From positions 1 through 64,000 of IMG/VR virus record IMGVR_UViG_3300027741_000030: DNA of 64,000 bases, one strand, 5' to 3'. Source of the stretch: a virus. The notes beneath the pieces are model-generated. The model had not been told where the DNA came from, did no database searches, and saw only the letters and a program-made list of their open reading frames with translations. The translations under genes and the position numbers were made by a program. Of this stretch, positions 3,725-30,574 are shown piece by piece. Each line of letters begins with the position of its first letter. Position 1 is the stretch's first letter.

Positions 3725-3738
3725 TGTATAATTGATAC

Positions 3739-5613: not shown

Positions 5614-5614
5614 G

Positions 5615-6102: not shown

Positions 6103-6141
6103 TTTTCTGATTCGTTCAAGAATCAGATTGAAATAAGGAGA

Positions 6142-7161: not shown

Positions 7162-7171
7162 TTCTTTAAAT

Positions 7172-7203
7172 TAAAGGGGCGGGGCTTAGGCCTTGCCCCT
7201 TTA
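7172..7203 (+). terminator. intrinsic terminator hairpin
   Basis: TAAAGGGGC...GCCCCTTTA after stop. Confidence 0.75.
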
Positions 7204-7243
7204 GTATTTAAATGATAAAATTGTTATTAAACAAAGGACAATA

Positions 7244-8047: not shown

Positions 8048-8255
8048 TAAAAGAAGTTTGTATAAGTCAGTCACCTGGCCAGCAGTCCATATATTATTTG
8101 TTGGAACTTTAGTATATTTTTTTGAACTTGCCATTACTGGAGAAGCACATTGGGAGTATGCTGGAACATTTGCTATTATTTACAGCGCATGCGAAATGCT
8201 TGGGTATTTCTTACATGAAAGAGCCTGGTCAAAGTTTGGCGGTAAGATTAAGTAA
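8037..8255 (+). CDS. DUF2061-like small membrane protein
   Basis: RSLYKSVTW...YFLHERAW signature. Confidence 0.75.
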   Translation: MESNKRSLYKSVTWPAVHILFVGTLVYFFELAITGEAHWEYAGTFAIIYSACEMLGYFLHERAWSKFGGKIK

Positions 8256-8589
8256 TGGCAAAAAGAAAATCAACAGCATTTAATGATACTCAAATTAAAG
8301 ATGGAAGAATTGTTAGATTAAGAAAAGATGGGTCGATTAAAGCCGATCTGGGCCCATACAGGCAAGGTATTGTTAAAAAAAATATTAAATAATGTCTACT
8401 AATAAATGTGAATATTTAACAGATTGCCCTAATAAGGCAACAAGAATAGCCCTTGAAGCAGGCAAAACCACAAGGATCTGCGACGAGTGCTGGCATCAAA
8501 ACTTTAGATCCTAATCAACTGAATGCTATAATATAGGTATGAGCGGATTACTAGTCCCGCTTAAATAGACAACCTATAGGAGTAATAAA

Positions 8590-8787
8590 ATGACAGACGG
8601 TATCAACTTAACAGGTTTTAACGAAGTTAAACCAGCAGGAACAAATGGAATTAATGCACACTACTCAGACAATACAGGTTCAGCATTTGCTGCATCAGAC
8701 ATGTCGTCACAAGGTAATGCAGGATTAAATAGAGAAGGATCTTCAAGTTCATTGCCAATTTCAGGCGCAGATGAATCAGATATGTAA
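8590..8787 (+). CDS. low-complexity hypothetical protein
   Basis: AGGAG RBS; ORF track. Confidence 0.6.
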   Translation: MTDGINLTGFNEVKPAGTNGINAHYSDNTGSAFAASDMSSQGNAGLNREGSSSSLPISGADESDM

Positions 8788-8789
8788 TC

Positions 8790-8945
8790 ATGGATCTATT
8801 TAATAAAGAAGAAGTTGTAGCACCAACACAAGAAGCAGCAATTGCACAGGCAATTAAGCCAGTAGCACCTGCATCTAATAAATGCACAAGAGACACAAGA
8901 GGCGAAAATCCTTGTGCAGTTAAAGATTGTGAGAACTGCAACTAA
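8790..8945 (+). CDS. 51-aa Cys-rich microprotein
   Basis: Ends KCTRDTRGENPCAVKDCENCN. Confidence 0.6.
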   Translation: MDLFNKEEVVAPTQEAAIAQAIKPVAPASNKCTRDTRGENPCAVKDCENCN

Positions 8946-9103
8946 TGTGTATGGATTGCGGATGCGGTATTAATTCAGTTGGCATGGGGTCAGGAATGAC
9001 ACCAGTTACAATTGAAGATGTTTCAAGAGATGGTGAATCTGGTACAACATTAGGAATGGTATCAACACCAGAAGAGACAAGACAGTTTATAAATGAGCAA
9101 TAA
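8945..9103 (+). CDS. 52-aa microprotein with N-terminal CxxCGC
   Basis: MCMDCGCGINSVG...; TAATG coupling to upstream ORF. Confidence 0.6.
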   Translation: MCMDCGCGINSVGMGSGMTPVTIEDVSRDGESGTTLGMVSTPEETRQFINEQ

Positions 9104-9299
9104 TATTAAAAAAGAAGATGGCACTGGCATGGTGCCACCAGCTAACGCTGGTGCACCTGCTGGTGCTGTTACAAGCACACAAACACCAAAAAGATACCCA
9201 AGACAAGGTGTAAAAATAGATACAAACAAACATGGTATTAGGAGAGAGACAAGCTTAATCCCTAAGCCTGTTAAAAAAACGGGTAGAAAAAAAATATAA
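9093..9299 (+). CDS. basic hypothetical protein
   Basis: ORF track. Confidence 0.55.
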   Translation: MSNNIKKEDGTGMVPPANAGAPAGAVTSTQTPKRYPRQGVKIDTNKHGIRRETSLIPKPVKKTGRKKI

Positions 9300-9304
9300 T
9301 TTAA

Positions 9305-10069
9305 ATGAAGTTCCATTGGTTACAAAGGTATAGCAAGTCTCCATACGAATTAAAAAATACTTTAATTAAAATAAATGAAATTGGATATGAATCTATACTT
9401 GTAACATTTAATACTGGAATGCTTGATCCTTTTACAAAATGTGCAAATGCTTTTATTCCAAATCAAAAAATTAAATTTATGGTTGCAATAAGACCATATG
9501 CTTTAACTCCAGCATACCTTTTGATGATATTAAAAACATTTGAAAAAATATCTAAGGACTGTATCGTATTGAATATAGTTCCTGGAACCGCAGATAAAGA
9601 ACAGTTTATTTTTGAAGAAGGTACATCATTGCATGAAAGAAAAGTATACGCTGGTAAATTTGTGGAAAAAATGAAAATTATAAATGATAAGCACAAATTT
9701 TTAAGTAATGACATGCCTAAAATATTTTTTAGCGGTGGTTCTGATGAAAATATAAGCAATGCAGTTAAATATGGTGATGGTCTTATTTATTTATTAAAAG
9801 ATCATTTGACAACTCCAGAAAGATTCAATACACTAAAAGGCACTCATATGCTAAATGTATTTATAATAATATGTGAAACTGAAAGTCAAGCAAAAGATAT
9901 ATATAGTAAATTAGATGGTCCACAAGTTGGAAGTTCAATTTATGGAACAAAAGAGCAGGTTAAAGAAAAGCTTCTTAAATTAAAAGATTTTGAGGTTTTG
10001 ATTTCATCATCAAAAATTTATGATTGCGATAACGATATTCATGACTTAGTAAAGGAAATCAATAAATGA
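9305..10069 (+). CDS. luciferase-like (LLM class) monooxygenase, paralog of 7244..8047
   Basis: MKFHW, GYESIL, KFMVAIRP, LNIVPG, SGGS. Confidence 0.75.
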   Translation: MKFHWLQRYSKSPYELKNTLIKINEIGYESILVTFNTGMLDPFTKCANAFIPNQKIKFMVAIRPYALTPAYLLMILKTFEKISKDCIVLNIVPGTADKEQFIFEEGTSLHERKVYAGKFVEKMKIINDKHKFLSNDMPKIFFSGGSDENISNAVKYGDGLIYLLKDHLTTPERFNTLKGTHMLNVFIIICETESQAKDIYSKLDGPQVGSSIYGTKEQVKEKLLKLKDFEVLISSSKIYDCDNDIHDLVKEINK

Positions 10070-10827
10070 TTATTCAAATAATTGGACTTCCAGGTTCAGG
10101 CAAAACAGAACTTGCAAAAGCGCTTAAAGAAAGAATTAATGCTATTCATCTTAATGCAGATGAAGTTAGAGCAACAGTCAATTCTGATTTAGGTTTTACC
10201 CCTGAAGATAGAATTGAACAGGCTCGCCGTATGGGTGAGATGGCAAGACTAATTTCCAAACAAGGAATTGCTCCAGTGATTGTAGATTTTGTTTGCCCAA
10301 TAGAGCTAACTCGTGCAGCATTTGGTAAACCAGACATTTTGGTATTCATGGATACAATTGCAGAAGGTCGTTTTGAAGATACTAATAAGATGTTTGAGCG
10401 CCCAACAGATTTTGATGTATCATTTATCAGCCACAATTTAAATGCAGAACAAAAAGCATCTCATATTATTGAAAAGTTTGGAATACACGACTGGTCTGCA
10501 CCCACAACACTTATGCTTGGTAGATATCAGCCATGGCATGAGGGCCACCATGCTCTTTACAAAGAGGCTGGTAAAAGAACAAATCAAGTACTTCTTGGAG
10601 TTCGTAATACATACAATACAAGCGAAAAGGATCCACTTAAATTTGATCAGGTAAAAGAATATATTGCTAAAGATGAATTTATGGATGGAGCACTGGTATT
10701 GAGACTTCCTAACATTACTAACATAGTATATGGTCGTGATGTAGGATACAAAATTGAGCAAGTAGATTTGGGGGCAGATATTCATGCTATTAGCGCTACG
10801 CAAAAACGTAAAGAGATGGGTCTCTAA
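10066..10827 (+). CDS. adenylyl-sulfate (APS) kinase-like domain fused to HxGH nucleotidyltransferase domain
   Basis: GLPGSGKT P-loop, LNADEVR, DLGF..EDR; C-terminal GRYQPWHEGH. Confidence 0.85.
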   Translation: MIIQIIGLPGSGKTELAKALKERINAIHLNADEVRATVNSDLGFTPEDRIEQARRMGEMARLISKQGIAPVIVDFVCPIELTRAAFGKPDILVFMDTIAEGRFEDTNKMFERPTDFDVSFISHNLNAEQKASHIIEKFGIHDWSAPTTLMLGRYQPWHEGHHALYKEAGKRTNQVLLGVRNTYNTSEKDPLKFDQVKEYIAKDEFMDGALVLRLPNITNIVYGRDVGYKIEQVDLGADIHAISATQKRKEMGL

Positions 10828-11380: not shown

Positions 11381-12057
11381 GGTTTCCAAAATAGAGTTTT
11401 TGCTTTTTCATATAGATCTATATCTATAGAGTTATGCTTTTTTATTAAACTTAACTCATCTTCATTTAAAGATTCATATATTTCTTTTACCCCAAAAGAC
11501 TTAAAATCATCGGTATCTAAAATGTTTTTTTCAAGAACCACTTCAGGAACATTAAACTCTAATGATATTTTTTTATTTATTTTATCAATTGTATATATAT
11601 TAACATCTTCAGAGTCTATTAAAAGATTGACCCTGCTTAACCTTTTAAATATTAAATTTTTGTCAAAATTAATATTTACAGAAGGATCAACTTTATTGTC
11701 CTCCCAATTTAAAAAATTTCTAGCAGATAGATTATTTATTAAATTAATGTTAGATAAAAGATCTTCTTTATTTTTTACATTTGAAAAAGCAACATTATAG
11801 CTTATAAATTGCAAAACTGGATCTCTTAATATGCACATTACATATGTTGATTCTTTTATTTCTGAAGCCCAGCCCCAGTGTGTCCATCCCTTTGTATCAG
11901 TTTTTGGACGTATAAATTCTTTGTTGTTTTTGTTTATTTGATCTATTAAAGATTTTAAAAGATACCTATGAAAAAATCTTCCAGCGCATCTATTTACATG
12001 CAAAAAATAAAATGAATCCATAAAATTAATTATATCATTGTAATCAAGTATTGACAA
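11377..12057 (-). CDS. sulfotransferase-family protein
   Basis: FLHVNRCAG (5'-PSB-like), ILRDPV..FIS (3'-PB-like), N..D..LY C-terminal motif. Confidence 0.65.
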   Translation of the reverse strand: MSILDYNDIINFMDSFYFLHVNRCAGRFFHRYLLKSLIDQINKNNKEFIRPKTDTKGWTHWGWASEIKESTYVMCILRDPVLQFISYNVAFSNVKNKEDLLSNINLINNLSARNFLNWEDNKVDPSVNINFDKNLIFKRLSRVNLLIDSEDVNIYTIDKINKKISLEFNVPEVVLEKNILDTDDFKSFGVKEIYESLNEDELSLIKKHNSIDIDLYEKAKTLFWKP

Positions 12058-12224
12058 TAAGACACTAATATAGTATATTTATCATATGCTTAAAATGTTA
12101 TTTAAAACAATAAAATGTAAAGCTGTTGGACATACGCTTGTAAATGCTGGAAGCTGTCCATTTACGGGTCTTTCTTACAATTATTGTGAAAGATGTGAAT
12201 TAATGTTGCCAAAGGAAGGTCAAT

Positions 12225-12806
12225 ATGTCGAATGAATTGATTAAAAGAGAAAATGGAATTTGGCAGTGGAATTCTGCATTTAATAATCCATCCGAGCTTA
12301 TTTCTGATATCTTGTTAAAAGATTGGAGACCATACAATAACGACGGTGGTGGAAGCACATTAATAGGTAGATCAACTATTGTGTATGAAAATGAAAAAGC
12401 ATATAATCAAATATTAGATGTATACTCAAAATGTTTGCAAGAATATATTAATCAAAATAATTTAAACATAACAACAGATAACCTAGGAACTGGATGGTGG
12501 CTAGTAAGAGACTACGCTGCTGGATCAGTAATGACGGCTCATGAAGATGCCTACAGCTATGTTAAAGATGGAGAGGATGAAGTCAAACCCATTTTTACTA
12601 TTCTTTTGTACATAAATGACGATTACCAAGGTGGAGAAATACATTTCCCAAATGAAAATGTAACAATAAAACCAGAAGCTGGCTCAGTTGTAATTTTCCC
12701 AAGCAATTTATCTCATGAAGTAAAAACAGTTATTTCAGGAAATAGATACATGACTCAAACCTATATATATGAGAAACCTTTTTCTCATTATCAACAAAAA
12801 TTTTAG
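12225..12806 (+). CDS. 2OG-Fe(II) oxygenase (prolyl-4-hydroxylase-like)
   Basis: HED, YINDDYQGGE, HEV, R. Confidence 0.85.
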   Translation: MSNELIKRENGIWQWNSAFNNPSELISDILLKDWRPYNNDGGGSTLIGRSTIVYENEKAYNQILDVYSKCLQEYINQNNLNITTDNLGTGWWLVRDYAAGSVMTAHEDAYSYVKDGEDEVKPIFTILLYINDDYQGGEIHFPNENVTIKPEAGSVVIFPSNLSHEVKTVISGNRYMTQTYIYEKPFSHYQQKF

Positions 12807-18571: not shown

Positions 18572-18781
18572 AGAAAATGATGATAGCTGATTTGATCAAA
18601 GCATCTGAAATGCCAGAACCTGGTGATTCAGAGGATGCAGGGATAGAGAATGATCTCAATACAGCAGGATATTCTACAGGCAAATGGTCAGATGACGATG
18701 ATATGCATCCTACAATAACTCCTCTATTTGGACCAAATAGGTAGCTAACTCCTATATCCCCCTCCCAATTATCTCCTCTTA

Positions 18782-19218
18782 TATAGCCCTTAGAAGGCTT
18801 ATATAGTGGAGTAAAGTGGAGCATAGTGGAGAATTTATACTCTAGATTCATATCAATATACTATAGTTATATCTATCTAAACATATCTATGTAATTGAGC
18901 ATACCCCATCATAAACGTAATGTCAATAGGACAATTCGGACATATATAGCAGCATATTGATCCATATTTGTCAATAAATTTTATGAGGAATTTTGATCTA
19001 TTTTGCCATATTCTCTACAGATTTGTCGACATTCTATAATGATTATATATTTAATTAGACATATTTTGTAGCATTTTCAGGGATTTTTGTCAAGCTTTCG
19101 TAAATAGAAAATTTGGCCCTAGCTTTCAGGGATTTTGATTAATTGGTCGTAAATAGAAAAATTTGCCCTCATGCTCACACACAAAAAATCCACAGGATGT
19201 GGATAACCCTGTGGATAA
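18782..19218. other. non-coding junction: 10-bp-period AGTGGAG repeats, AT-rich tract, tandem spaced motifs and DnaA boxes (candidate origin or genome-end/injection signal)
   Basis: ATAGTGGAGT-AAAGTGGAGC-ATAGTGGAGA; TGTGGATAA at 19198 and 19210; convergent strand switch. Confidence 0.5.
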
Positions 19219-19273
19219 TTTGGGCTAGATATGTTTATCTATCTAACCAGGCATTCATCTATTCATATATGCC

Positions 19274-19648
19274 TTAATTGAATGGATCTAGTTCTTCACT
19301 CCGCCATCCAAACTTATATGTGGCTTTTGGTTCTTCCCGCTTTTTAACTGTATAAGAACGAGAGGGTAACTTAAGATTATTTAAGTTGTTATCTTGCTGA
19401 TATGATTTAATACATTCATTTAATTCATTAGCAAGAGATAAACCTTCGGTTGATTCACCTCTATTTGAATATACATTATATAACTTTGCTTGCTCTGATA
19501 TAACTGACACAATCATTTCCATAACTCTGTCAATTGTATACAATGGCTGTTCCGCCAAATATCTACCAAAGACTGTCGGATTAAACCAATGGTCATCCAT
19601 TAGATTAACTAATGATTCTGCTACTTTGATTTCAGGTGACTTACTCAT
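19274..19648 (-). CDS. hypothetical phage protein
   Basis: GGAAGG RBS and TGGTATAAT upstream of MSKSPE start. Confidence 0.65.
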   Translation of the reverse strand: MSKSPEIKVAESLVNLMDDHWFNPTVFGRYLAEQPLYTIDRVMEMIVSVISEQAKLYNVYSNRGESTEGLSLANELNECIKSYQQDNNLNNLKLPSRSYTVKKREEPKATYKFGWRSEELDPFN

Positions 19649-19732
19649 ATTCCGCCTTCCGCCTAACTGTCGATTATACCAAAAATAAGAGACGGGGTCA
19701 AGGACCAACGAGCCCCAACCCCGTCCCAAGTT

Positions 19733-19879
19733 TTACTTCGCCTTGTTTGTTACTTCCTTGGTGAAGACAACGCCTGCCTTCTCAGCTTCCGCTAGAGCTA
19801 CCTTAGCTGCTCCTGAGAAACGACCACGTACACCTACTGTAATGCCTTGAGCTTTTAGATATTCACGCTTTGTTGCCAT
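19733..19879 (-). CDS. 48-aa Lsr2-type DNA-binding domain only (not in ORF track)
   Basis: MATKREYLKAQGITVGVRGRFSGAAKVALAEAEK...; RGR AT-hook-like motif; GAAAGGGG RBS; TTTACA-N17-TATAAT promoter; hairpin terminator downstream. Confidence 0.75.
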   Translation of the reverse strand: MATKREYLKAQGITVGVRGRFSGAAKVALAEAEKAGVVFTKEVTNKAK

Positions 19880-20104
19880 TTGTTTATCCCCTTTCAAGAG
19901 ATGATATTTGTTTCAATTATACAAGATATCCACGAATTTGTAAATACCCCCGTAAGACCAAATTTTGGCCCTCAATTTTGATCGCTTAGTTCCATTCTAT
20001 CTTTAATTAATTTAGCAATGATGTTGTGAGCCTCGATGTTTTCTGTTTCGCTGCCACCCCACAAAAGCTTTTGTGCTGTATTTAATTGATCATTGATGTA
20101 CTGA

Positions 20105-20425
20105 TCACTCATCCTCATCCTCGTCATCCTCCTCGTCTTCTTCGAACATTGTGTCAACAATGTAGTCACGATTAGTCATCCATTCAAGGACATCATCTTG
20201 GTGTTGTTCGGCACCATACTCCAAGGAAAACCCTTGCCCAGCCTCTACAGCCTCGCACAGGTGGTCCCACATTTGGTCCTGGGTTACTTTGGCCTTGTAT
20301 GTCTCATCTTCTAGGATGTTGTTAATAGTCGACCAGGTCCAAAGCCATACCATGGACAAGCCGAGGTCGGTGGTATCTAGAATCTCTAGACATTTATTTA
20401 GTTTATCTTTATCTTCAGGCTTCAT
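20105..20425 (-). CDS. acidic hypothetical protein with D/E tail
   Basis: ORF track; GGAG RBS. Confidence 0.65.
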   Translation of the reverse strand: MKPEDKDKLNKCLEILDTTDLGLSMVWLWTWSTINNILEDETYKAKVTQDQMWDHLCEAVEAGQGFSLEYGAEQHQDDVLEWMTNRDYIVDTMFEEDEEDDEDEDE

Positions 20426-20697
20426 AGTGTACGTTCTCCAATCGCAAATGATAGTTGATATGTTAGATTATATATATCTGCTAATGTATCAAGGGCACCT
20501 TCACATCTTGTGCGTTCCATTGAATCCATTGCTTCTTCTGATTCTTCTTCTGTCTCAATAGCGCTAGCCAATTGCTGTTCTGCAATTAGCATGAGGTTCT
20601 TTAGTTCCCCGTGCATTATATCTAATCCACTAACACCGTAGTTGACCAAACGTTGTAAATGGGGCGGGAGCCCAATGTCTTCATTATTCATTATCAT
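20422..20697 (-). CDS. acidic hypothetical protein
   Basis: AACGAAAGG leader; motif promoter at 20718. Confidence 0.65.
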   Translation of the reverse strand: MIMNNEDIGLPPHLQRLVNYGVSGLDIMHGELKNLMLIAEQQLASAIETEEESEEAMDSMERTRCEGALDTLADIYNLTYQLSFAIGERTL

Positions 20698-21010
20698 ACC
20701 TTTCGTTAGTAGAGTTCATTATATCAGTAGCCACTGACAACAAATGTTCTGTTGCTATAATTTGTCCTTTAATATTATCTATCTTAGAACCATCATAGTC
20801 TCTAGTGTTTAAGTATTCATCATAGAATTTATCATAGTCCTGGTTAAGACTAATTAGATGTATGTTCATATACTCTAGGAATTTAGAAGACTTTGTTTCT
20901 ATTTTATTATATTCCTCTTGGTCACATCTATAGCATGTAACATTTTCATCCTCCGTATAAAGCATTCCTGCCCCACAGGAGGCACACCATGATTGGTCAC
21001 GCATTCCCAT
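20684..21010 (-). CDS. zinc-ribbon hypothetical protein
   Basis: CASC...CYRC; GGGAG RBS; motif promoter at 21041. Confidence 0.65.
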   Translation of the reverse strand: MGMRDQSWCASCGAGMLYTEDENVTCYRCDQEEYNKIETKSSKFLEYMNIHLISLNQDYDKFYDEYLNTRDYDGSKIDNIKGQIIATEHLLSVATDIMNSTNERYDNE

Positions 21011-21118
21011 AATAATACTCTCCCGTTTCTCTATTGAAGTATCTTACCATAGAGCACTGACATGTAAAAATTCCAGGGACATCTGAACACTCCCAGTAAT
21101 GCTGACATTTAGCCCCCA

Positions 21119-21292
21119 TTATTCAAAATACCCTTCTGCCCATAGGCCTTGCATAAAACTGACAGCCATTTCTAAATCATTCCTTAGTTCTGTCTTATCC
21201 ATTAAATCGGACGGGGTCCTAAGATAAAAAAGCTTTGCGTCATGTACAGCATTAATCATCTTGTTTAGATCGGATTCAGTATAACCTAACAT
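21119..21292 (-). CDS. hypothetical 57-aa protein
   Basis: MLGYTESDLNKMINAV...; GAGG RBS; coupled to neighbours. Confidence 0.55.
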   Translation of the reverse strand: MLGYTESDLNKMINAVHDAKLFYLRTPSDLMDKTELRNDLEMAVSFMQGLWAEGYFE

Positions 21293-21444
21293 TATGCAAC
21301 CTCATATTCATGTAAGTAGTTTAAGACATTGTGAATAATACAATCACAATCTTCTCCGCCCATATTATCCATAAATTCTAAGTGACTAGAATTATCTTCA
21401 TAGATAATAGTAATTACTTTATCAAATAGTTCTATATTGCTCAT
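21292..21444 (-). CDS. hypothetical 50-aa acidic protein
   Basis: MSNIELFDKVITIIYEDN...CDCYIH; GGAGG RBS. Confidence 0.55.
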   Translation of the reverse strand: MSNIELFDKVITIIYEDNSSHLEFMDNMGGEDCDCIIHNVLNYLHEYEVA

Positions 21445-22217
21445 GCCTCCACCTTTTCTTTAGGCTCTAATAATACACTATGGGTCTGACATTTTGCCAT
21501 TGCCTCTTCATCTTGCCAAGAGCCTTGATTACAGTTTGAGCAGAATTCACCGCAGTCATCTTCGCAATAACTCAATGTATCGTAAGACTGGCAAGCATAG
21601 CAACGGTTCTCCCATTCAGCCAATTCTTTTACTTCACCACGGACAATCTCATATTCTCCACCCCAACCTGTCTCTTCCTCAAACTCTAATGTAAGCAGGC
21701 AGTTGGGAACAAGATTACTTAGTTTAGTTAAGATAGTTACAGCAGGTGACCAAGCAGTTTCATATTTGTAGACAAGCCAGTTGTCATCACCTTCTGATTT
21801 GTATTCAAGCAATTCTGTTTCAGGATATTCATCTTCATCACGGACAGCAACATCCCACTTAGTTCCCCAGTTAGATGTATTCCACGAATACCAATCTTTT
21901 TGAGTCTTAGCAAACTCAACAGACTTGCGGAACCAATCAGGGTCATTCTGAATATCATAGTTGCCACGAGAAGGTTGGCAGGCATATTCCTCATCAGTAA
22001 TACCGTCATCCTTATATGAGTGGATGTTATGAAAAGCAAACACAGGATTATTATATTCAACTAATTTAATTTTGGTGGGGAAACCCGAAGAACTAATATC
22101 ACCCATACCATATGTCTCTTGTGCTAATGTAAAAGGCTTATTCAATCTATCTTTAATCATATCTACCTCAGACTTAGGTCCTTGGATAGTTAATGTGTTA
22201 TATACCCAATTTGGCAT
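21441..22217 (-). CDS. DUF1281/YubB ferredoxin-like domain protein with C-terminal Cys cluster
   Basis: MPNWVYN, WYSWN..NWGTKWD, ETAWSP motifs. Confidence 0.8.
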   Translation of the reverse strand: MPNWVYNTLTIQGPKSEVDMIKDRLNKPFTLAQETYGMGDISSSGFPTKIKLVEYNNPVFAFHNIHSYKDDGITDEEYACQPSRGNYDIQNDPDWFRKSVEFAKTQKDWYSWNTSNWGTKWDVAVRDEDEYPETELLEYKSEGDDNWLVYKYETAWSPAVTILTKLSNLVPNCLLTLEFEEETGWGGEYEIVRGEVKELAEWENRCYACQSYDTLSYCEDDCGEFCSNCNQGSWQDEEAMAKCQTHSVLLEPKEKVEA

Positions 22218-22392
22218 TTTATATCCTTTCGTTGATATGGCTTAATTATACAATGGACCACTGACATTTGGGAAGAGTATATCGTGTGATACACACCACA
22301 TCCTCCAAGCTATGTGGTCAAGATCACAGAATTTTCAGGGATTTTATATTGACATCGTAAACAAAATAATATACCCTCAGTCTTTTGCGGGC

Positions 22393-22427
22393 AAAATAAA
22401 AACCCCCCAAGCTATAAGCTGGGGGGT
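22393..22427 (-). terminator. intrinsic terminator
   Basis: ACCCCCCAGC-TTATA-GCTTGGGGGGT followed by TTTTATTTT on - strand. Confidence 0.8.
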
Positions 22428-22543
22428 ATGAATATGGCTGCTGATTTCCAACGAAAGAAATAAACCGCTTTACTTAGCGCCTGGCCCGCAGACTAGTTAG
22501 ACGCACCATTTCATTTCTATATTAAAACCAGGACCAAGGTCCT
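22393..22543 (-). ncRNA. candidate ~150-nt trans-acting sRNA antisense to the shared early-gene RBS
   Basis: TGGTATAAT promoter (22558-22550); 5' hairpin AGGAC-CUUG-GUCCU; seed UUUAUUUCUUUCGUUGG; C6/G6 terminator plus U tract; only tiny ORFs. Confidence 0.6.
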
Positions 22544-22550
22544 ACATTAA

Positions 22551-22919
22551 TTATACCATACTTAGTTGACTGGAATACTTATCCACGAATGCCTCAAGGC
22601 TCGTACTAAATACAACTGTCTGCAGGTCTTCTTCCATTAGAGTAAACGTTTTGTTTTTCCAATCGATAATAGGTACCTTGTGCTCATTGTCTGATAACTC
22701 ATTAACTGTAATGCCCCAACCTGTTTCGCTGGACCACTCATCCCCAATTAAATTAGATATACATATACGTGTTGCATATGCTTCGTCATTCCATCGAGGC
22801 TTTGCTTTAAGAACACAGTCTGCTAAATTCTCTAGCATTCTGTGGCCCGCCCAATGACCGTATAGAAATACAACATTCTCATTGGATTGTCTAAATCCAA
22901 AGTTTGCTCTGTCTCCCAT
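22551..22919 (-). CDS. hypothetical phage protein (MGDRAN... type)
   Basis: ORF track; AAGGCGG RBS. Confidence 0.7.
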   Translation of the reverse strand: MGDRANFGFRQSNENVVFLYGHWAGHRMLENLADCVLKAKPRWNDEAYATRICISNLIGDEWSSETGWGITVNELSDNEHKVPIIDWKNKTFTLMEEDLQTVVFSTSLEAFVDKYSSQLSMV

Positions 22920-22920
22920 T

Positions 22921-23112
22921 TTATTCCGCCTTTGTTAGTTGTTGTTCCTGCTCGTTGTTGAGCAATTGTACCATCTCATGGGCCCAGTCCACAAGTGGCC
23001 CGCCATGGTGAGCTTTATGATGTCCGCAAAAATAAAGAGACATCTCATCTTTCTTTGCTTCCCACATAGCTTGCGCCGCACATTGGTCACACTTAAGCCA
23101 TTCAGACATCAT
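22921..23112 (-). CDS. small zinc-finger protein (CxxC...CxHH)
   Basis: CDQCAAQA...FCGHH. Confidence 0.65.
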   Translation of the reverse strand: MMSEWLKCDQCAAQAMWEAKKDEMSLYFCGHHKAHHGGPLVDWAHEMVQLLNNEQEQQLTKAE

Positions 23113-23263
23113 AGGTTTCCACCTTCAATCATTTCAGAAAGACGATCAAGGATCCAAGAATCAATGTCAGCGATATCAATCTCTGCTAACTTCTCCATAA
23201 TTTCTTCACGAGCAAACTTATACCCGTCTTGAAAACCATCTTTATAGTCTGACATTTTATCTC

Positions 23264-23467
23264 CTAGTATCCTGTCGCTTCTTTGTCTGACCAGTATGAT
23301 TCTTTTAAATTATACTTATCACGAATGCGACTTACTTTCTCAATACTACCAGTTCCAATGTTGAAAGTCAATGGTGGCATAAACTCAGGGTCAAGTCCCA
23401 TAATTTGTGCATCCCAATAAGCCATCTCAAGAGATAGCCTATCGGGAGCAGTTAACTCAAAGTACAT
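23264..23467 (-). CDS. hypothetical protein
   Basis: ORF track; GAGG RBS. Confidence 0.6.
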   Translation of the reverse strand: MYFELTAPDRLSLEMAYWDAQIMGLDPEFMPPLTFNIGTGSIEKVSRIRDKYNLKESYWSDKEATGY

Positions 23468-24099
23468 TATGCCTCACGCACATTACATACTTCGGTGTCA
23501 TTGATTTCAATGTTACCGTTATTTGAATCGGCATAAAGAGCATCGTAGACTTCTGACTCAAGGTCTAACTCATAATCATTCTCAAGAATGTTATATGTAT
23601 ATGTTCCGCTAACTTCAAGAGTTGCAGTAAACAGAACTTCCTTGATTAGTTCAATGCCAAGCGCTTCGGCAATTGCACGGAGTGTATCTTTATCCTCTGA
23701 ATCTTCATATGCTTCACAGATAATTTCTTTAGCCGCATCAATGTTAGATAATAGAGTAGTTACACGCTTCTGTGATTGACGTCCATTGTGCAAATCCCAT
23801 TCAAGAGATGCGACTTTATCAGTTGCATATTCTGCATCTGAGTAACCACGGATTACTTTGTAGGTAACCAATAAGTTAGCATTGTACGTATCAGGAACTG
23901 TTACTGCAGGTGTTGTTGTCTCTTCCATTTTTTCCTCTTTCGTTTGGTTTGAAGGTGAAATTGTAGCATCTTCCACTGACAAATAGGCAGTGTTTCCACC
24001 GCATTCGCATGTGACATTAATCACATCCCTGGTTGATGTATATTCAATTAATGCATCACATGTATGGCATACATGTGTATATTTATTCCAAGTTGTCAT
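23467..24099 (-). CDS. hypothetical protein with N-terminal zinc ribbon; second in-frame start at 23928
   Basis: Leaderless ATG 6 nt after -10 at 24106; internal promoter 23960 and AACGAAAGAGG RBS before MEETT. Confidence 0.65.
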   Translation of the reverse strand: MTTWNKYTHVCHTCDALIEYTSTRDVINVTCECGGNTAYLSVEDATISPSNQTKEEKMEETTTPAVTVPDTYNANLLVTYKVIRGYSDAEYATDKVASLEWDLHNGRQSQKRVTTLLSNIDAAKEIICEAYEDSEDKDTLRAIAEALGIELIKEVLFTATLEVSGTYTYNILENDYELDLESEVYDALYADSNNGNIEINDTEVCNVREA

Positions 24100-24203
24100 G
24101 CGAGTATTGTACACTAGGCCACTGACATTTACAAGGATATTCCAGGGATTTTTTTTGTGATTCGTAACACAAAAAATTTGCCTTTGCCTGTGCGGGCATT
24201 TTG

Positions 24204-24277
24204 CGACCCATATCGGACTTGAACCGACGGCCTCTACCGTGACAGGGTAGCGCTCTAACCAACTGAGCTAATGGATC
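24204..24277 (-). tRNA. tRNA-Asp(GTC)
   Basis: Acceptor GATCCAT/ATGGGTC; CTACC-CTGTCAC-GGTAG; TTCAAGT T loop. Confidence 0.93.
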
Positions 24278-24288
24278 AAGAAAAAATG

Positions 24289-24317
24289 TGAGCAGTTTTA
24301 AATCTTGCTCAGGATTT
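24289..24317 (-). ncRNA. small H-type pseudoknot motif (copy 1)
   Basis: AAAUC-CUGAGCAA-GAUUU-AAAAC-UGCUCA. Confidence 0.5.
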
Positions 24318-24324
24318 TTTTTAA

Positions 24325-25329
24325 TTAAAACGCAGAAACTAATTTCTTAATTTTATTTTTTTCTGCGGTAAGAACTGGGTCAAACCCTGATGCACCAGCC
24401 ATAAGAGTTTCGCCATTGCCACGTCCTGAACGATAATAATCTAAACGCTCAGTTAGTGCATTGAACGCACCCCACTTTGTGCCTTTGATATTAGCGTTAG
24501 TTGGTGAATTATGATAAAGGTCATCAAGAAGAACGACTTTGTTTTCCCACTTCTTGATTGCGCCCTTAGCATCTTTTTCAGGCTTAGGATAGATTGTCTG
24601 AATCAACTTAGAGAATTCAGCATCGGTGATTGATTGAGAATAAAGGGCTTGAGCCTCTTTTTCAAATTCATCAAAGTATCCGAGAGCAAGACCGAGAGTC
24701 TCACGAGCAACAGCGATGCGACCTTCAACAGATTGGGTGTGACGAATTTTGAAAGATTGCTTTGCATTACGCATTGCAAGATTCAATGTGTTTTGGCAAA
24801 CTACACGAACAGGTGTGACGGCTGCTTGAACAGCAACAGAACCATCGTGTGATGTCCAGACAATGAGATAAAGTTTTGTCTCATCGTTAGCGCCTTGTGG
24901 GTCTAATACCATTGTGCGGGGAATATCGACAGTGCCGAAAACAACTTTACCCTTTTTCAATGAGCCAGCAGATTCCCAACGGCAATCAGCATTAGCATCG
25001 TGAATTGCATCAGCGAATGCAAATAATTCTTCATTCTGCACAGGCTTGTAACGCTTGCCGACAGTTGCGAGAACATCTACGCCCTTATTAAATGGGTTAT
25101 CACGAATGACAAGAGATGCGGTAGAAACATCATTCCAAGATTCTGGAATGTGCTCAGTGATTGGAGATAAACGAACATTCCAATTTGCTAACTTTGCCTC
25201 TTCAAGCATTGTAGCGGTTGTAACTTCCTCATCTTGTGTAAAGATTCGGTTAGCGAGATTGTGCCAAGCAGGAGCGCCACGAAGCGCAAATGCAACTTCG
25301 CCATTTTCCATTTCTAGATTATGAGCCAT
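24325..25329 (-). CDS. DUF932 / TIGR03299 phage-plasmid protein
   Basis: MAH...PAWH.L, Y..VQN, TSHDGS, TPVRVVCQNTL, IRHT, GTKWGAFNA.TE. Confidence 0.88.
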   Translation of the reverse strand: MAHNLEMENGEVAFALRGAPAWHNLANRIFTQDEEVTTATMLEEAKLANWNVRLSPITEHIPESWNDVSTASLVIRDNPFNKGVDVLATVGKRYKPVQNEELFAFADAIHDANADCRWESAGSLKKGKVVFGTVDIPRTMVLDPQGANDETKLYLIVWTSHDGSVAVQAAVTPVRVVCQNTLNLAMRNAKQSFKIRHTQSVEGRIAVARETLGLALGYFDEFEKEAQALYSQSITDAEFSKLIQTIYPKPEKDAKGAIKKWENKVVLLDDLYHNSPTNANIKGTKWGAFNALTERLDYYRSGRGNGETLMAGASGFDPVLTAEKNKIKKLVSAF

Positions 25330-25555
25330 TTTTATTTCCTTTCGTTTGATTGTTGATGCAAGTATAACAGGTGGCACTGACATTGTCTAGATTAGTTAGT
25401 CATTTGTCCGAATTGATCCGTGTGATTAATTTCACAAAATTTTCAGGGTTTTCCACAACTGTGCGTAAACCTGTGGATAACCCCATACCTGTGCGGGCTT
25501 CCCGCACCATCAACTGGAGCTAGCAGCGCTAACCCCAGTTGATCGATGTGGTTGT

Positions 25556-25777
25556 TTATGAATTTATTTTTGCAACAGTGTCTTCATTTAAAAACATTGC
25601 TGTTGTTTTCTTTTTCTTTTGCATGTCAAATACGTAAGCATTTACTTTTCCGCTAAAACGGCGGATGTTAGAGAACACCAACTCTGTTAAGTGCTCTTTA
25701 TCTACACCTTGCTCTGAATAAATAGTTACATCATTTGCTTTGTTTGCGTCATAGATTTCAACTCTAAAGCGAGCCAT
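25556..25777 (-). CDS. hypothetical protein
   Basis: ORF track; AAAGG RBS. Confidence 0.65.
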   Translation of the reverse strand: MARFRVEIYDANKANDVTIYSEQGVDKEHLTELVFSNIRRFSGKVNAYVFDMQKKKKTTAMFLNEDTVAKINS

Positions 25778-25809
25778 TGTATTACCTTTGTTAGTAGTTT
25801 CCCGAAGAA

Positions 25810-25836
25810 GAGCAGTTTGGCGACATACTCAGGTCG
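25810..25836 (-). ncRNA. small H-type pseudoknot motif (copy 2)
   Basis: CGAC-CUGAGUAU-GUCG-CCAAAC-UGCUC. Confidence 0.5.
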
Positions 25837-25845
25837 TTTATTTAT

Positions 25846-26262
25846 TTAGAGATACTTAGCAATTTGCTTCATTGTAGAAGCATTTACTGTTTCCTCATCT
25901 GTCATCTTGAGAATTGTGAGAGCATTTGTGATGTCCTCTTTCATTTCACGATAACTGTGCTGATGAATTGTCTCAAAATCTTTTTGAGGTTCAGCAGGAA
26001 AGTTTCCTTCCTTTGTGATGATGTCAAAATCAACATTGAGAGTGTTGTTCCAAGAACGATAGTTTGTGCGAAGGTTCTCAGCCTTTGAGAAGTTGGCAAT
26101 AGCCCACTTACCGATTTCCTTGCGCCACGCTTCTACCGCTTTGGTGTGCTTTGCTTCTTTTGCTTCTTGTGTTGCGTAATTAGTTTCTAACTCAGCAAGG
26201 CGAGCCTCTAGTGCCTTGATTACTTTTGGTGTTGCCACCTTTACTGTTATTGCTCTACTCAT
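25846..26262 (-). CDS. hypothetical phage protein
   Basis: CCAACGAAAGG leader; motif promoter 26294. Confidence 0.75.
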   Translation of the reverse strand: MSRAITVKVATPKVIKALEARLAELETNYATQEAKEAKHTKAVEAWRKEIGKWAIANFSKAENLRTNYRSWNNTLNVDFDIITKEGNFPAEPQKDFETIHQHSYREMKEDITNALTILKMTDEETVNASTMKQIAKYL

Positions 26263-26394
26263 TTGTTTCCTTTCGTTGGTTGGTTGTTAGAGTATTGTAT
26301 CAGACGGGTCTGACATTTCCCCGAAGGGAGAGAGTTTTTACTTACGACATTGGGCTAGAACACTCTCTGAAACTGCCCCTGTTTCGCTAGTTGA

Positions 26395-26571
26395 TTAGAC
26401 TAGGCTTGCGTTGCTAACTGTTGTCCAACGAGTTTCCTTTGTTGGCATTTCTAGCAACACTCTCACCGAGCCAGATGAGTTAGGAATAATCTCTTTGATT
26501 ACTCCTGTCTTTTTTGACTTTAAGGTTGTGAATAAATCGCCAACCTTGTATGTGTATCCATTTACTGTCAT
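26395..26571 (-). CDS. small SH3/KOW-like hypothetical protein
   Basis: YKVGDLF..G.I.EI; GAAAGG RBS; motif promoter 26598. Confidence 0.6.
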   Translation of the reverse strand: MTVNGYTYKVGDLFTTLKSKKTGVIKEIIPNSSGSVRVLLEMPTKETRWTTVSNASLV

Positions 26572-26664
26572 TTTGCTTCCTTTCTGTTTAGGGTTGTAGT
26601 ATAGCATTGGGGTCTGACATTAGTCTAGCCCTATCTCATTATTTGAGAAAGTTATTGTGTGACC

Positions 26665-26931
26665 TTAGTCACTTTCAGGTAGCCAAGCGTCTAAGTGGTG
26701 AGCATCAACTATTGCAGACGCAGGGCAGGAAGTCTGTCCTCGCCAAGTGATACCTTCAGGTAAATTGATCTCACGGCTGTATTCCTCATCATAGAACGCA
26801 TCAATAGCATCTATGCAAGGTTGCACCATTGATACGGGAACGGGTGGGTAATGATTACCTTGTAAGTGATAAGCAAGTCCTGCCTCTAGTGATAGTTCAT
26901 CTGCAAGTCCTAGTGCTGTTGTGTATCCCAT
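26665..26931 (-). CDS. hypothetical phage protein
   Basis: HLQGNHYPPVP...HHLDAW. Confidence 0.7.
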   Translation of the reverse strand: MGYTTALGLADELSLEAGLAYHLQGNHYPPVPVSMVQPCIDAIDAFYDEEYSREINLPEGITWRGQTSCPASAIVDAHHLDAWLPESD

Positions 26932-27137
26932 TATGCCACCACCTTTAGAATTGCGTATGAACCGCCTGCATTAATTTCATCTATTGCAGGCTGAATTGCT
27001 GGTACGATTAATTCTTTTAGCATTCCTTCTAGCATAGCAATTTGCTCTTTTGCTTCTAGTGCAAGAAAACGCTGTGAGATTGGATGTGTTTCGTCAAACT
27101 CTGTTACGAATTTGAGAGAGTGTTCGACTTTGGTCAT
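26931..27137 (-). CDS. hypothetical protein
   Basis: CAACGAAAGG leader; motif promoter 27167. Confidence 0.65.
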   Translation of the reverse strand: MTKVEHSLKFVTEFDETHPISQRFLALEAKEQIAMLEGMLKELIVPAIQPAIDEINAGGSYAILKVVA

Positions 27138-27422
27138 TTGTTACCTTTCGTTGTTGGAATAAGAGTATTGTACCGCAGGCTACTGACATTACCTAATCTA
27201 TTATCGGCGTGTCGCAGCTTTTGTGAGATTAATCACAAAATTCCAGGGGTTGTGGATAAGTATCGTAAGCCTGTGGATAAACCCTCACCTATGCGGGCGA
27301 GCTGCATATTTATGCGTTACTCTGCATTTTTATTTTTATGTTTGATCTTGCGATTATATTTTTTTTTATTGCGAACAGGTTGCGCCGCATTACTGCGACG
27401 CAATTCCTGAATGCGTTTAACT

Positions 27423-27614
27423 TTATCTTGAAGAGAAGTTAGGAACATGATATCCACTCGCTTCATGAAATTTATTTACATCAAAGTTAGGATTTTCATT
27501 TGCAAACATAACCGCAAAATCATTTACTGTTTTAGAAAAAACAGCGGGATGAATTTTATCGCTCATGAATTTAAGAATTTCTGCAGTTGCTTCAAAGTGC
27601 TTTCGTGTCATCAT
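27423..27614 (-). CDS. hypothetical phage protein (MTRKHF...NPNFD..KF type)
   Basis: ORF track. Confidence 0.65.
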   Translation of the reverse strand: MMTRKHFEATAEILKFMSDKIHPAVFSKTVNDFAVMFANENPNFDVNKFHEASGYHVPNFSSR

Positions 27615-27811
27615 TTTGCGGATACCAATCCAATTCTATTAAAGTTTTTAGTATACATTTTGCCAGTTGGCATTTCTAAATTATAAGTTGCTAATTCTTT
27701 AGCGAACCCAACATCATAACATTTTGCAAATGCTTCAAATGCTTGCAAAGCATCTGCAAATTGGTGAGTAAATTCTAAATTTCCGTCATAGTAAGTAAAT
27801 AGTTTATACAT
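27611..27811 (-). CDS. hypothetical protein
   Basis: GAGG RBS before MYKLF. Confidence 0.6.
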   Translation of the reverse strand: MYKLFTYYDGNLEFTHQFADALQAFEAFAKCYDVGFAKELATYNLEMPTGKMYTKNFNRIGLVSAK

Positions 27812-28110
27812 TAGCAACCTCTTTCCATTCGAAACAATAAGAGTCAGAAACAAAAGGATTTTTCTTTACAACCTCATCAAATAAAGATAACGCTTGATTT
27901 TCGTCCTCTGCGTCTATGTCTAGCCAAACGCCAAATGTGTATTTATTCATTAGTCATTTTCTCCATTCAAAAATAGTGAGCCGTCATTTACACAATCGCA
28001 AGGCTCTACATCATAATTTCTTTCGTCTCCGAAAAAAACAAATCCTGCGCCACCGCATTCATCGCAATTCGCTGCGATTATTTCTATGTATTCTTTTATT
28101 TTGCTCATTA

Positions 28111-28326
28111 TTATTCACCAACCTTTACTGCGATTGTGCGATAAGTTCTGCGACCCCAAGTGTTAGAGCCACTATTAGGCGCAACCTCGACAAGATAGGT
28201 ATCGCAACCCTCATACCAAATTGGCTGAGGGTGTTTTTCCGCTGAAATAATTTCACCGATTAGAGTAGATGAGCGATAGGTTTTTCCTACAAGTAGGTTT
28301 TCGATTGTGTAGATGTTTGCTGACAT
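28111..28326 (-). CDS. hypothetical protein
   Basis: CAACGAAAGG leader; motif promoter 28358. Confidence 0.65.
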   Translation of the reverse strand: MSANIYTIENLLVGKTYRSSTLIGEIISAEKHPQPIWYEGCDTYLVEVAPNSGSNTWGRRTYRTIAVKVGE

Positions 28327-29190
28327 TTTGTCCGCCTTTCGTTGTTGATATACGGATATTATAGCGGATAGGACTGACAAAGTGTTAATTTTGCAAGGGT
28401 TTGTCTCAATATGTGGAGCGTGGGCTATGTGATAAACATCACATAAAAATGTCCGATTTGTCTGTCAAACCGACACGCCGTAAATTTTCAGGGTTTTTAT
28501 AACAGTTCCGTAACGACACGCCCGACCCCGTGCCTATGCGGGCCAGCTTGACATTGTCAAGCCGACACGCCGTTTATTCTTTGTTATCTTGCTCACATAC
28601 GCATCTAGTGTAAGCACCCGCATTAAGACGATCACATTTAGGGCAGGTATAAAATCCGCTAGGGTTAGCCATTAGTTTAACCCGTTTTCTTTTATGTCTT
28701 TGATTACGGCAATTAGTAGCGGGATAGTTAAGCCCGCTAGTAGTAATTGGACGGCGGTAGTTAGTAGGCGATTAGTAGTCATTACTTATTCTTCTTTCTC
28801 TTATAAATCTTATAGGCGATTACCACTAGGGCGGTTAGTGTTATTAGTTTCCAATCTAGTGCGACATAGAACCAATCGCTATCTAGACATATACCATAGT
28901 CATTTATTTCTAATGTCATTACATCTCAACCTTTCGCATATGTGCTACAACATTTTTAGAAACCTTTTGTAGGTCTGCTACGACCTTATTCATTTCATCG
29001 GCGCTAGTTGCCTTAAAGTCAACGCCTAGTAGTTGTGCGCCGTCCCATATTGAGTAAGTGATAGTCATTTATAGTGCTCCTTCTTGTAGTAGTGCTATCT
29101 CGATGTCTAGTTGTATTGTATCGGGTAGGTCTGACAAATCAACCCAACCCGCTCCTTCGTTATCCATTATGAACGCTTTTACATATCCCA

Positions 29191-29373
29191 TTACGCTACC
29201 TCTGACATCTCTGCTAGTAGTGCGTCTACTTGCTCATCTGTTAGTTCATCTTCTAATTCTTCATCTTCTACATCTACCTCTTCATCTAGGTAAGCGTATT
29301 GGTCGGCTACATCTTCCTGAATAGTGTCCCACTTAGAGAGGCTATTAGTGCGTGTGTTGTATGCGTATGACAT
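29191..29373 (-). CDS. highly acidic 60-aa protein
   Basis: D/E-rich; AACGAAAG leader. Confidence 0.7.
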   Translation of the reverse strand: MSYAYNTRTNSLSKWDTIQEDVADQYAYLDEEVDVEDEELEDELTDEQVDALLAEMSEVA

Positions 29374-29407
29374 TTATTTCTTCTTTCGTTAGTTGGTTAT
29401 TTGGTTG

Positions 29408-29461
29408 AGAGCGATTATTTGCTAGGCTCACCTTTCGGATTATTTGCTAGGCTCACGCTCT
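29408..29461 (-). repeat. 19-bp direct repeat pair enclosed in a hairpin (structured 5' leader)
   Basis: GATTATTTGCTAGGCTCAC at 29413 and 29438; flanked by AGAGCG/CGCTCT. Confidence 0.8.
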
Positions 29462-29548
29462 AATTCTTTATTTATTTGTATGTCGTAAGACTATCACGAC
29501 CTACTGACATTTAGCCTAATTTAGGGCTAGTGTCGTGTGTGAGTTACC

Positions 29549-29656
29549 TCACATCTCCGCTATATTAGCCTCGTGATAGGCGAGAGTAATTTCCTCGCCG
29601 AATTCGGATACTAGGTCGTTATAGACCTCGTCTTGATAGTTAAGATAATCGTTCAT
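29549..29656 (-). CDS. 35-aa acidic microprotein, first gene of the inverted block
   Basis: MNDYLNYQDEVYNDLVSEFGEEITLAYHEANIAEM; GAAAGG RBS; motif promoter 29706. Confidence 0.55.
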   Translation of the reverse strand: MNDYLNYQDEVYNDLVSEFGEEITLAYHEANIAEM

Positions 29657-29926
29657 TAGATTACCGCCTTTCTTAGTAAGACTTTCTTACTTTCTTTATA
29701 CCTTAAGCATAGCAAGGGGGACTGACATTTAGACCCCTATTCTCGGGCGTGTCTAAATAAATCTTAGAATAATCGTGTGATCTCCACCACAATCACGCTC
29801 ATTATGGGCGGTCTATCCATTTTGTCCGATTTTGATTTATATGTGTATCGTGCAAATTAAAAATTTATTAACATTTTTTGAAATCTGAACGGCTGGTCAA
29901 CTAAAAATAAATGGTAAACTTATAAT

Positions 29927-30460: not shown

Positions 30461-30518
30461 TTTTCTAGGGGGGTCGGGGGGTCAGTAAATCAATAATATT
30501 TAAATATATTATATATAT

Positions 30519-30543
30519 AAGACCTAAGACCTAAGACCTAAGA
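30519..30543 (+). repeat. 7-bp tandem repeat (AAGACCT) x3.5
   Basis: Visible in intergenic DNA after G-runs GGGGGGTCGGGGGGTC. Confidence 0.75.
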
Positions 30544-30574
30544 TCAAGTGATACATGGAATGGTACAATAAAGT

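Follow-up and report, generated by a model that had tools for sequence, protein, structure and literature searches.

A lineage-restricted three-block motif before the early transcription units of an uncultured phage, with a possible promoter-like role

The DNA analysed here (the window) comprises the first 64 kb of a 115,655-bp IMG/VR virus record rated complete (IMGVR_UViG_3300027741_000030), and carries nine co-oriented copies of a three-block motif within a block of leftward early genes. On the sense strand of these genes (minus), the motif reads GGG-N13-TTACG-N15/16-CCCTGRAA(WTT), commonly with a GCCC...GGG hairpin upstream. It is real, highly non-random and conserved within a phage lineage, and is best regarded as a form of phage regulatory cassette. 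We tentatively favour its interpretation as a second, regulated class of promoter-like element with sigma-70-family geometry, read by host RNA polymerase together with an additional factor. As such, it would mark the 5' start of each early transcription unit of the host-takeover type.

Form, position and conservation of the motif

Exact matches to the plus-strand form CAGGG-N15/16-CGTAA-N13-CCC number six in the window, against 0.00 in 100 shuffles. Searched over all 115,655 bp of the genome, a relaxed core (TTACK-N15/16-CCSTGRA) has eight copies, which are restricted to the minus strand of the interval 19,075-28,529; together with a degenerate copy at 19928 they make nine, all intergenic, on one strand and within 19.07-28.54 kb. 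The nine co-oriented, fixed-spacing copies described in an original prediction, made from the sequence of the window, are thus confirmed as eight core copies and one degenerate copy, and the variants listed there are correct (TTACT at 21071, AGG for GGG at 24140, and a copy without the CCCTGRAA block at 19928). The strand had to be revised: the motif had been read in antisense, and its sense orientation to the leftward genes was overlooked, as were CRP-like boxes past CCCTG and the promoter after every copy.

The plus strand carries nearly all phage genes, apart mainly from an inverted block of small genes at ~18.5-29.8 kb. Each motif copy follows the end of a gene, a tRNA-Asp or a strong intrinsic terminator (22402-22427, 19188-19216), and the copies therefore start units rather than end them. 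Each lies 5-115 nt before a promoter, either of the type TGTCAG-N10-TAnnAT or of the canonical type. Promoters of the first type number 14 (20718-29727, minus strand), with six preceded by motif copies; six are followed by a conserved ribosome-binding leader, ACGAAAGG, ~8 nt before the ATG. The remainder of the genome uses canonical TTGACA / TGnTAnAAT promoters. The TGTCAG-N10-TAnnAT promoters are a motif class separate from the three-block motif, which they partner. A RecA-NDp/PafBC-type promoter (TGTCRGTG-N8-TAnnnT) was considered as the identity of the three-block motif and rejected, as this pattern is a separate element 5-115 nt downstream. No helical phasing was found between the motif and its downstream promoter (distances 16-114 nt). 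Two copies overlap canonical promoters, with the -35 hexamer in spacer 2 and the -10 hexamer just past CCCTGRAA.

Related loci (80, with 1.13 Mb in total) were fetched via the DUF932 protein, and contain 337 core matches on the gene strand and 0 on the opposite strand. More than 300 distinct copies of the motif were obtained from ~190 related viral contigs, and a good promoter stands just downstream in 155 of the 188 copies having a downstream open reading frame (ORF). Among 252 distinct copies, GGG was found exactly N13 upstream of TTACG in 96-98%, GGG not being required by the search, and the second spacer has 15 nt (119 copies) or 16 nt (132 copies), with one exception of 17 nt. The conserved spacing proposed in the original prediction thus extends to the relatives, with 15 or 16 nt in 251 of 252 copies. 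Further positions left free by the search are T-R-n before GGG, GCCC near -30, R after TTACG and a run of A before CCCTG. Behind CCCTG follows R-A-A-W-T-T, with the first A fixed by the search pattern, the second A present in 90% and the two Ts in 76-79%. Spacer sequences differ between relatives while GGG, N13 and N15/16 are kept. Five complete relatives (112-120 kb) contain 24 core matches, on one strand and within a block of at most ~11 kb, with 0 matches to a reversed-pattern control.

The strict form of the motif was matched by at least 118 viral stretches, compared to seven scattered matches among 185,579 cellular genomes (596 Gb), none of them in Actinobacteria and with ~9 expected by chance by our estimate. 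The full motif is thus a property of this phage lineage; a host (cellular) regulon motif was rejected on the same grounds, the strict full pattern being at chance level in cellular genomes. A literature search returned no account of the motif, and only unrelated matches to its block sequences.

The phage encodes a DnaB-like helicase, a primase, a large DNA polymerase, a UvsX-like recombinase and a terminase; no lysogeny genes were seen. The closest cultured relatives of its DUF932 protein (~52% identity) reside in the terminal-repeat early modules of Streptomyces phages, and its other protein matches are mostly to actinophages as well, which makes an actinobacterium the most likely host, probably of the low-GC freshwater type. 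Cultured isolates of 'Ca. Nanopelagicales', hosts of related phages, exist (PMC10202952). A WhiB protein with a basic C-terminal tail is encoded at 1945-2256 (plus strand). Its 312 close homologues are all located on phage-like contigs of up to ~114 kb and therefore indicate an abundant phage group; this group is uncultured and abundant in lakes, with hundreds of related contigs, and its hosts are likely uncultured low-GC Actinobacteria.

More remote relatives keep part of the motif. A distant clade, which has only DUF932 (52% identity) in common with this genome over the 14 kb compared, carries the core ATTACGA-N16-18-(C/G)CCTGAAA, in sense orientation in 20 of 21 matches and without GGG-N13. 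Its copies precede TGTC-type promoters; a small gene between terminators has two to three tandem copies (34-nt period) immediately ahead of its ribosome-binding site and ATG, and one copy past the last terminator faces A/T-rich repeats and DnaA boxes, resembling the junction described below. In a third clade, at most one to three weak motif variants were found per genome.

RNA structure was tested by column-pair statistics on 233 copies, by folding against shuffled sequences and with Rfam. GGG pairs upstream in 130 of the 233 copies (~56%) and is kept also in copies without a hairpin. Past CCC:GGG, pairing in the upstream stem equals the independent-column expectation at every position, with no covariation. 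The upstream GCCC...GGG segment folds at -8.7 kcal/mol, compared to -6.6 kcal/mol for shuffled sequence, and extended pairing between the spacers is limited to copies that by chance hold DnaA boxes in inverted orientation. Rfam returned only the tRNA-Asp and a chance microRNA match, and no family for the motif. These results support a DNA-level site and not an RNA fold, in agreement with the original observation that no consistent hairpin forms. A structured RNA family was rejected for the lack of compensatory pairing beyond CCC:GGG and of an Rfam match.

The nine copies, their spacers and the junction

All copies lie on the minus strand and are numbered from right to left. Copy 1 (28486..28543) consists of GCCCGCATAGG, GGG, an N13 spacer with a GGCGTGTCG box (at 28514), TTACG, N15 and CCCTGAAA, followed by a perfect CRP-like box (28428-28443) and the partner promoter TGTCAG-N10-TATAAT (28358-28379). 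Copy 2 (27241..27298) has two direct TTATCCACA boxes (27251, 27272), one per spacer, with N15 and CCCTGGAA, a CRP-like box 7 nt past CCCTG (27222-27237) and its partner promoter at 27167-27188. In copy 3 (25441..25498), a TTATCCACA box in spacer 1 (25472) is joined by an inverted imperfect box in spacer 2, with N15 and CCCTGAAA; a CRP-like box (25421-25436) follows, and the partner promoter (25361-25382) lies upstream of the DUF932 gene. Copy 4 (24140..24197), with AGG for GGG, N15 and CCCTGGAA, begins 5 nt past the tRNA-Asp (24203-24277) and has a CRP-like TGTGT-N6-TCACA spanning TTACG; its partner promoter is at 24106-24127. Copy 5 (22333..22392) has A/T-rich spacers, N15 and CCCTGAAA, adjoins the strong intrinsic terminator at 22402-22427, and is followed by a near-CRP box (~22313-22328) and a partner promoter (22245-22266). 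These five rightmost copies contain GCCCGCAHA.

Copy 6 (21071..21115), the TTACT variant with N16 and CCCTGGAA, begins at the stop codon of the upstream ORF 21119-21292 and has its partner promoter within 16 nt (21041-21062). The degenerate copy 7 (19928..19972) retains GGG-N13-TTACG, has lost the 3' block (CCCTGRAA), and overlaps a canonical TTTACA-N17-TATAAT promoter (19916-19944); relatives have CCGTGAAA or CCCTGAAA as the 3' block at this position. Copies 8 (19124..19168) and 9 (19075..19119) form a tandem pair with a 49-nt period, both with N16. Copy 8, with A/T-rich spacers, is preceded by a terminator-like hairpin made of two ATCCACAGG arms (19188-19216); copy 9 overlaps a TTGACA-N17-TACAAA sequence (~19065-19093) and faces an A/T-rich non-coding junction (18745-19075).

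The boxes for host factors that the original prediction had placed in the spacers are real, namely TTATCCACA at 25472, 27251 and 27272, the CRP-like box at 24140 and GGCGTGTCG at 28514. Perfect TGTGA-N6-TCACA boxes were in addition found 7-8 nt downstream of CCCTG at three copies of this genome. Among 318 distinct copies, TTATCCACA-type boxes occur in both spacers and in any orientation in ~40%, a CRP-like box spanning TTACG in ~10%, TGTGA-N6-YCACA beginning 7-8 nt past CCCTG in about half, and GACACGCC boxes in ~13%, while 27% have A/T-rich spacers only. The boxes are placed as is usual for regulators of promoters, in that they flank the TTACG block, lie inside a spacer or start 7-8 nt past CCCTG. 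A fixed frame with exchangeable contents thus holds across the lineage. Perfect TGTGA-N6-TCACA palindromes were also seen away from motif copies, at 24010-24025 and 29538-29553, one of them inside the ORF 23467-24114.

The convergent non-coding junction (18745..19273) has no conserved ORF and contains DnaA-type boxes, A/T-rich DNA, promoter-like sites, several of them leftward, and three CTCCACT repeats ~10 nt apart (~18798-18832). The tandem pair faces the A/T-rich, 330-bp part of it, with its DnaA-type boxes and short repeats. Judged from these features, the junction is a possible replication origin, into which the tandem pair would read.

Two side observations concern related loci. In locus L224 of the third clade, the early block is followed by a ~1-kb non-coding A/T-rich region (11720-12700), where TTACGA occurs six to seven times in one orientation, accompanied by a single DnaA box and several CCCTAGTA / TACTAGGG repeats; this is probably an equivalent origin region. 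Loci L217 (1340-1400, 2745-2800) and L222 (2860-2920, 3280-3340, 6230-6290) of a sister clade contain GTTAC/GTTAT units in threes, at a period of 11-12 nt. Arranged as GTTAC-n6-GTTAY-n7-GTTACGA just upstream of the -35 region of TGTC-type promoters, they look like a response-regulator-type direct-repeat site. Elsewhere in the window (30470-30574), three TAAGACC direct repeats, then TAAGATC, and two copies of the G-rich GGGGGGTC lie upstream of a gene at 30575.

A promoter-like element and its alternatives

In the reading that we favour, TTACG(R) would act as the -35-like and AAAAnCCCTG-RAAWTT as the -10-like block, with GGG as a third rigid contact 13 bp upstream. Binding of host RNA polymerase would involve a further specificity factor, probably one encoded by the host and acting as an alternative sigma or as an activator/adaptor. 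Every operon would thereby have two promoters, the motif and, downstream of it, the TGTCAG-N10-TAnnAT or canonical one. Control of the upstream promoter may be exerted by the boxes of DnaA, CRP-like and GACAC type that occupy the spacers and the predicted start site. From the tandem pair, at the far end of the block, transcription would run into the A/T-rich junction with its DnaA boxes, as from phage promoters at transcription-activated origins.

The distance between the centres of the two core blocks (22-23 bp) is a sigma-70-family value, and a tolerance of +/-1 is typical of sigma regions 2 and 4. Within the 3' block, RAAWTT has an invariant A and, at the two most important -10 positions, T in 76-79%, with TG just upstream and A/T-rich DNA just downstream. 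We consider the promoter reading the best one because the sigma-70 spacing, the flexible spacer, the A/T-rich 3' block and the sense orientation are found together with the position after terminators, the linkage to downstream sequence and the placement of the regulator boxes. Consistent with promoters of this family, the copies are intergenic, co-oriented and upstream of genes.

A number of observations weigh against it. The motif blocks do not match the housekeeping consensus (TTGACA-N17-TAnnnT), and with RAAWTT taken as the -10, TTACG is located 19-21 bp upstream, too far for a housekeeping sigma alone. Most copies already have a good downstream promoter, and a second one is therefore not required. 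In other members of the distant clade, TTACGA stands by itself and closes a series of GTTAC-type direct or inverted repeats beside the -35 region, and such stand-alone boxes look like a transcription-factor site; at the position equivalent to the motif, Streptomyces phage Jay2Jay has an operator-like palindrome. Six-frame Pfam searches of the phage detected neither Sigma70_r2 nor a T7-type RNA polymerase, the control for the T7-type model being also empty. Finally, no gene was found that is common to this genome and the motif-bearing G007 (only 67% complete) and absent from the motif-poor G008 and G009.

The sigma search of the phage yielded one weak r4_2 match (13 bits), and Pfam and PHROG searches of 20 early proteins and the large proteins returned no DNA-binding candidates. 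Because no gene specific to motif-bearing genomes is evident, a host factor appears more likely as the reader of the motif than a motif-specific phage protein. WhiB was rejected as the specificity factor, being present in clades both with and without the motif. In an informal comparison with known actinobacterial sigma and regulator consensus sequences (SigD, SigF, SigH/E, WhiG, GlnR/AfsQ1, PhoP and others), none fitted the motif.

The strongest competitor, which we regard as rather unlikely, is an operator or roadblock array, in which a DNA-binding protein of phage or host would occupy GGG, TTACG and CCCTGRAA and shut off the early operons or insulate them from read-through. It would suit the co-oriented, intergenic copies at operon boundaries, the two sites that overlap the -35 region and spacer of a canonical promoter, the lone TTACGA boxes beside promoters in the sister clade, the Jay2Jay palindrome at the equivalent position, and the double copy that ends the block before convergent genes. 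However, the second spacer varies by 1 bp about half-and-half, which rigid multi-contact binders rarely tolerate, most copies are 16-114 bp upstream of the promoter and thus too far for occlusion, and strong terminators already stand before some of them. Furthermore, neither a cognate repressor gene nor a Pfam match to a DNA-binding domain among the early proteins turned up, and no gene is exclusive to motif-bearing genomes. Two proposals of the original prediction are affected by this. Its DNA site for a multi-contact protein stands as far as the DNA level is concerned, given the lack of covariation and of an Rfam match, although we prefer the promoter-like reading. Its repressor occluding host activators survives as part of this rival, the flexible spacer, sigma-70-like geometry, post-terminator position and A/T-rich 3' block being better suited to a promoter.

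We think it unlikely that the motif is primarily a replication element, either an iteron-like site used by an initiator jointly with DnaA, or a promoter of primers at multiple origins, with the operon copies secondary. This would be consistent with the tandem pair adjoining DnaA-type boxes, A/T-rich DNA and short repeats, a layout repeated in the distant clade, with the DnaA boxes of ~40% of the copies, one helical turn from TTACG, and with the DnaB-like helicase, primase and polymerase of the phage. Yet seven of the nine copies are dispersed over 9 kb before operons, neither tandem period (34 or 49 nt) corresponds to an integral number of helical turns, ~60% of the copies have no DnaA box, and no initiator gene was identified.

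Counting from TTACG, segments of high identity between relatives end preferentially at -70 to -11 and seldom within the core, so that the motif tends to stay linked to the downstream sequence. Homology endpoints within 50 bp amount to 1.54 per site at the motif, 0.91 at TGTCAG promoters and 0.74 at random intergenic sites, in counts that ignore the relatedness of the genomes. Small accessory ORFs and allelic first genes vary directly beside the motif, and cassette order changes in one sub-region; gene order was compared by protein-family synteny, as clustering of the cassettes by DNA collapsed to one group. In the original prediction, a recombination site for module shuffling had been suggested, and the ~2-fold enrichment of breakpoints at the upstream edge and the variable accessory ORFs fit this in part. 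It is nonetheless improbable that the motif is a cassette of hairpin and motif kept mainly as a recombination substrate that moves early cassettes between phages, in the manner of promoter-early stem-loop (PeSL) cassettes, for all the resemblance of its stem-loop and promoter-type element to these (PMC2839356, PMC4122927). Gene order is largely collinear, and recombination alone leaves near-invariant blocks with free spacers of fixed length unexplained; recombination at the motif is likely a side effect and not its primary function.

The remaining alternatives are highly improbable. An antisense promoter of the ECF-sigma type on the plus strand, with TTYCAGGG as -35, a T-tract and CGTAA as -10, would produce RNA against the upstream early operon and shut it off. 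The long -35 block, the Ts, the 15/16 spacer and the CGT-type -10 resemble the ECF architecture, and the plus strand is also the one along which the remainder of the genome is oriented; however, the -35-like block has no AAC, no ECF sigma was found in the phage, the invariant CCC would lie ~7-9 nt inside the transcript with no clear role, and the context, after terminators and before ribosome-binding sites, suits the sense reading better. As poorly placed is a structured RNA element in the sense transcripts (antitermination, processing or attenuation), despite the somewhat better folding of the upstream segment than of shuffled sequence. A resemblance of CCCTGAAAA to the 5' half of lambda boxB was also counted in its favour. 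Opposed to it are pairing at chance beyond CCC:GGG, with GGG kept without a hairpin, the absence of an Rfam match, and long pairing confined to copies with incidentally inverted DnaA boxes. The nicking, ejection or packaging signal of the original prediction, which we group with the latter alternative, is equally improbable: nothing was found that ties the copies to genome ends or otherwise points to it, and they are confined to one ~10-kb early block in six complete genomes, always placed between the end of a gene and a promoter.

A bolder extension of the promoter-like reading, which we advance as speculative and somewhat doubtful, is that the three contacts form the rigid frame of a new class of promoter or docking site, with the fixed-length spacers as slots for interchangeable host-regulator boxes. 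If true, each early operon would be wired to a different combination of host-state signals via a host adaptor or alternative sigma. For phages of the likely hosts, uncultured low-GC Actinobacteria, the fixed frame with exchangeable boxes offers a testable cis-element by which early phage expression, and perhaps origin firing, could be related to host physiology. In metagenomes, the motif is a sequence signature for the early module and for cassette boundaries, and if its reader is a host factor, it would indicate a so far unrecognised specificity of a promoter or regulator in Actinobacteria.

Comparison with known systems

Stoperators, the sites of the L5 repressor in cluster A mycobacteriophages, are single 13-14-bp sites distributed genome-wide in temperate phages. 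With the motif they have in common many asymmetric sites in short intergenic regions, with one orientation to transcription, in actinobacterial phages; in contrast to them, the motif spans 45-60 bp in three blocks, one of its spacers is flexible, and it occurs in a single early block of a phage in which no lysogeny genes were seen. A stoperator-type repressor site was rejected on account of the three blocks over 45 bp, the ~10-kb block and the lack of a repressor or helix-turn-helix match in the early proteins.

The terminal redundancy of SPO1 constitutes an early host-takeover module with repeated promoter/terminator units. The early modules of SPO1 and Jay2Jay resemble the block described here in their many small genes and in units that each have a terminator, an upstream element and a promoter, and Jay2Jay shares with this phage a DUF932 gene and an Lsr2-like gene. 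In Jay2Jay (L215, KM652554.1), nearly every intergenic region of the terminal-repeat early module (800-10500) contains, in this order, a GGGCCC-type terminator hairpin, a GTCCGnCCCGGAC(A) palindrome and a TTGTAT-N17-TAGACT promoter. It differs from this phage in having the GTCCGnCCCGGAC palindrome and the TTGTAT-N17-TAGACT promoters and no TTACG...CCCTG motif.

Architecturally, the closest parallel appears to be the PeSL cassette of T4-type phages, which combines a stem-loop with a promoter (PMC2839356, PMC4122927). Both are intergenic, co-oriented repeats of a G/C stem-loop and a bipartite promoter-type element, located in a region of small variable early genes at the boundaries of insertions, deletions and replacements. 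An association with boundaries is seen here in the enrichment of endpoints (relatedness ignored) and in the variable small ORFs. The PeSL promoter is near-consensus sigma-70, whereas this phage has the TTACG/CCCTGRAA blocks and a separate promoter downstream; moreover, only ~56% of the motif copies have the hairpin, and host-regulator boxes are embedded in them. Assignment to the PeSL type of stem-loop plus near-consensus promoter was rejected, with a hairpin in 130 of 233 copies and no sigma-70 consensus.

T4 middle promoters, which depend on sigma appropriation by MotA/AsiA, occur in tandem with early promoters and also at origins. In the sigma adaptation by PafBC in mycobacteria, an adaptor for the host polymerase acts on a non-canonical upstream box and a -10-type block (PMC8635444). 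The motif shares with both systems this combination of box and block, and its partner promoters are of the PafBC -26-element type. It differs from them in that its upstream box is farther from the -10-like block, not nearer, its -10-like hexamer is without the usual T at the first position, and no adaptor or activator was identified. By analogy, a phage middle-type promoter, in tandem with an early promoter and at an origin, appears to be the closest functional parallel to the motif.

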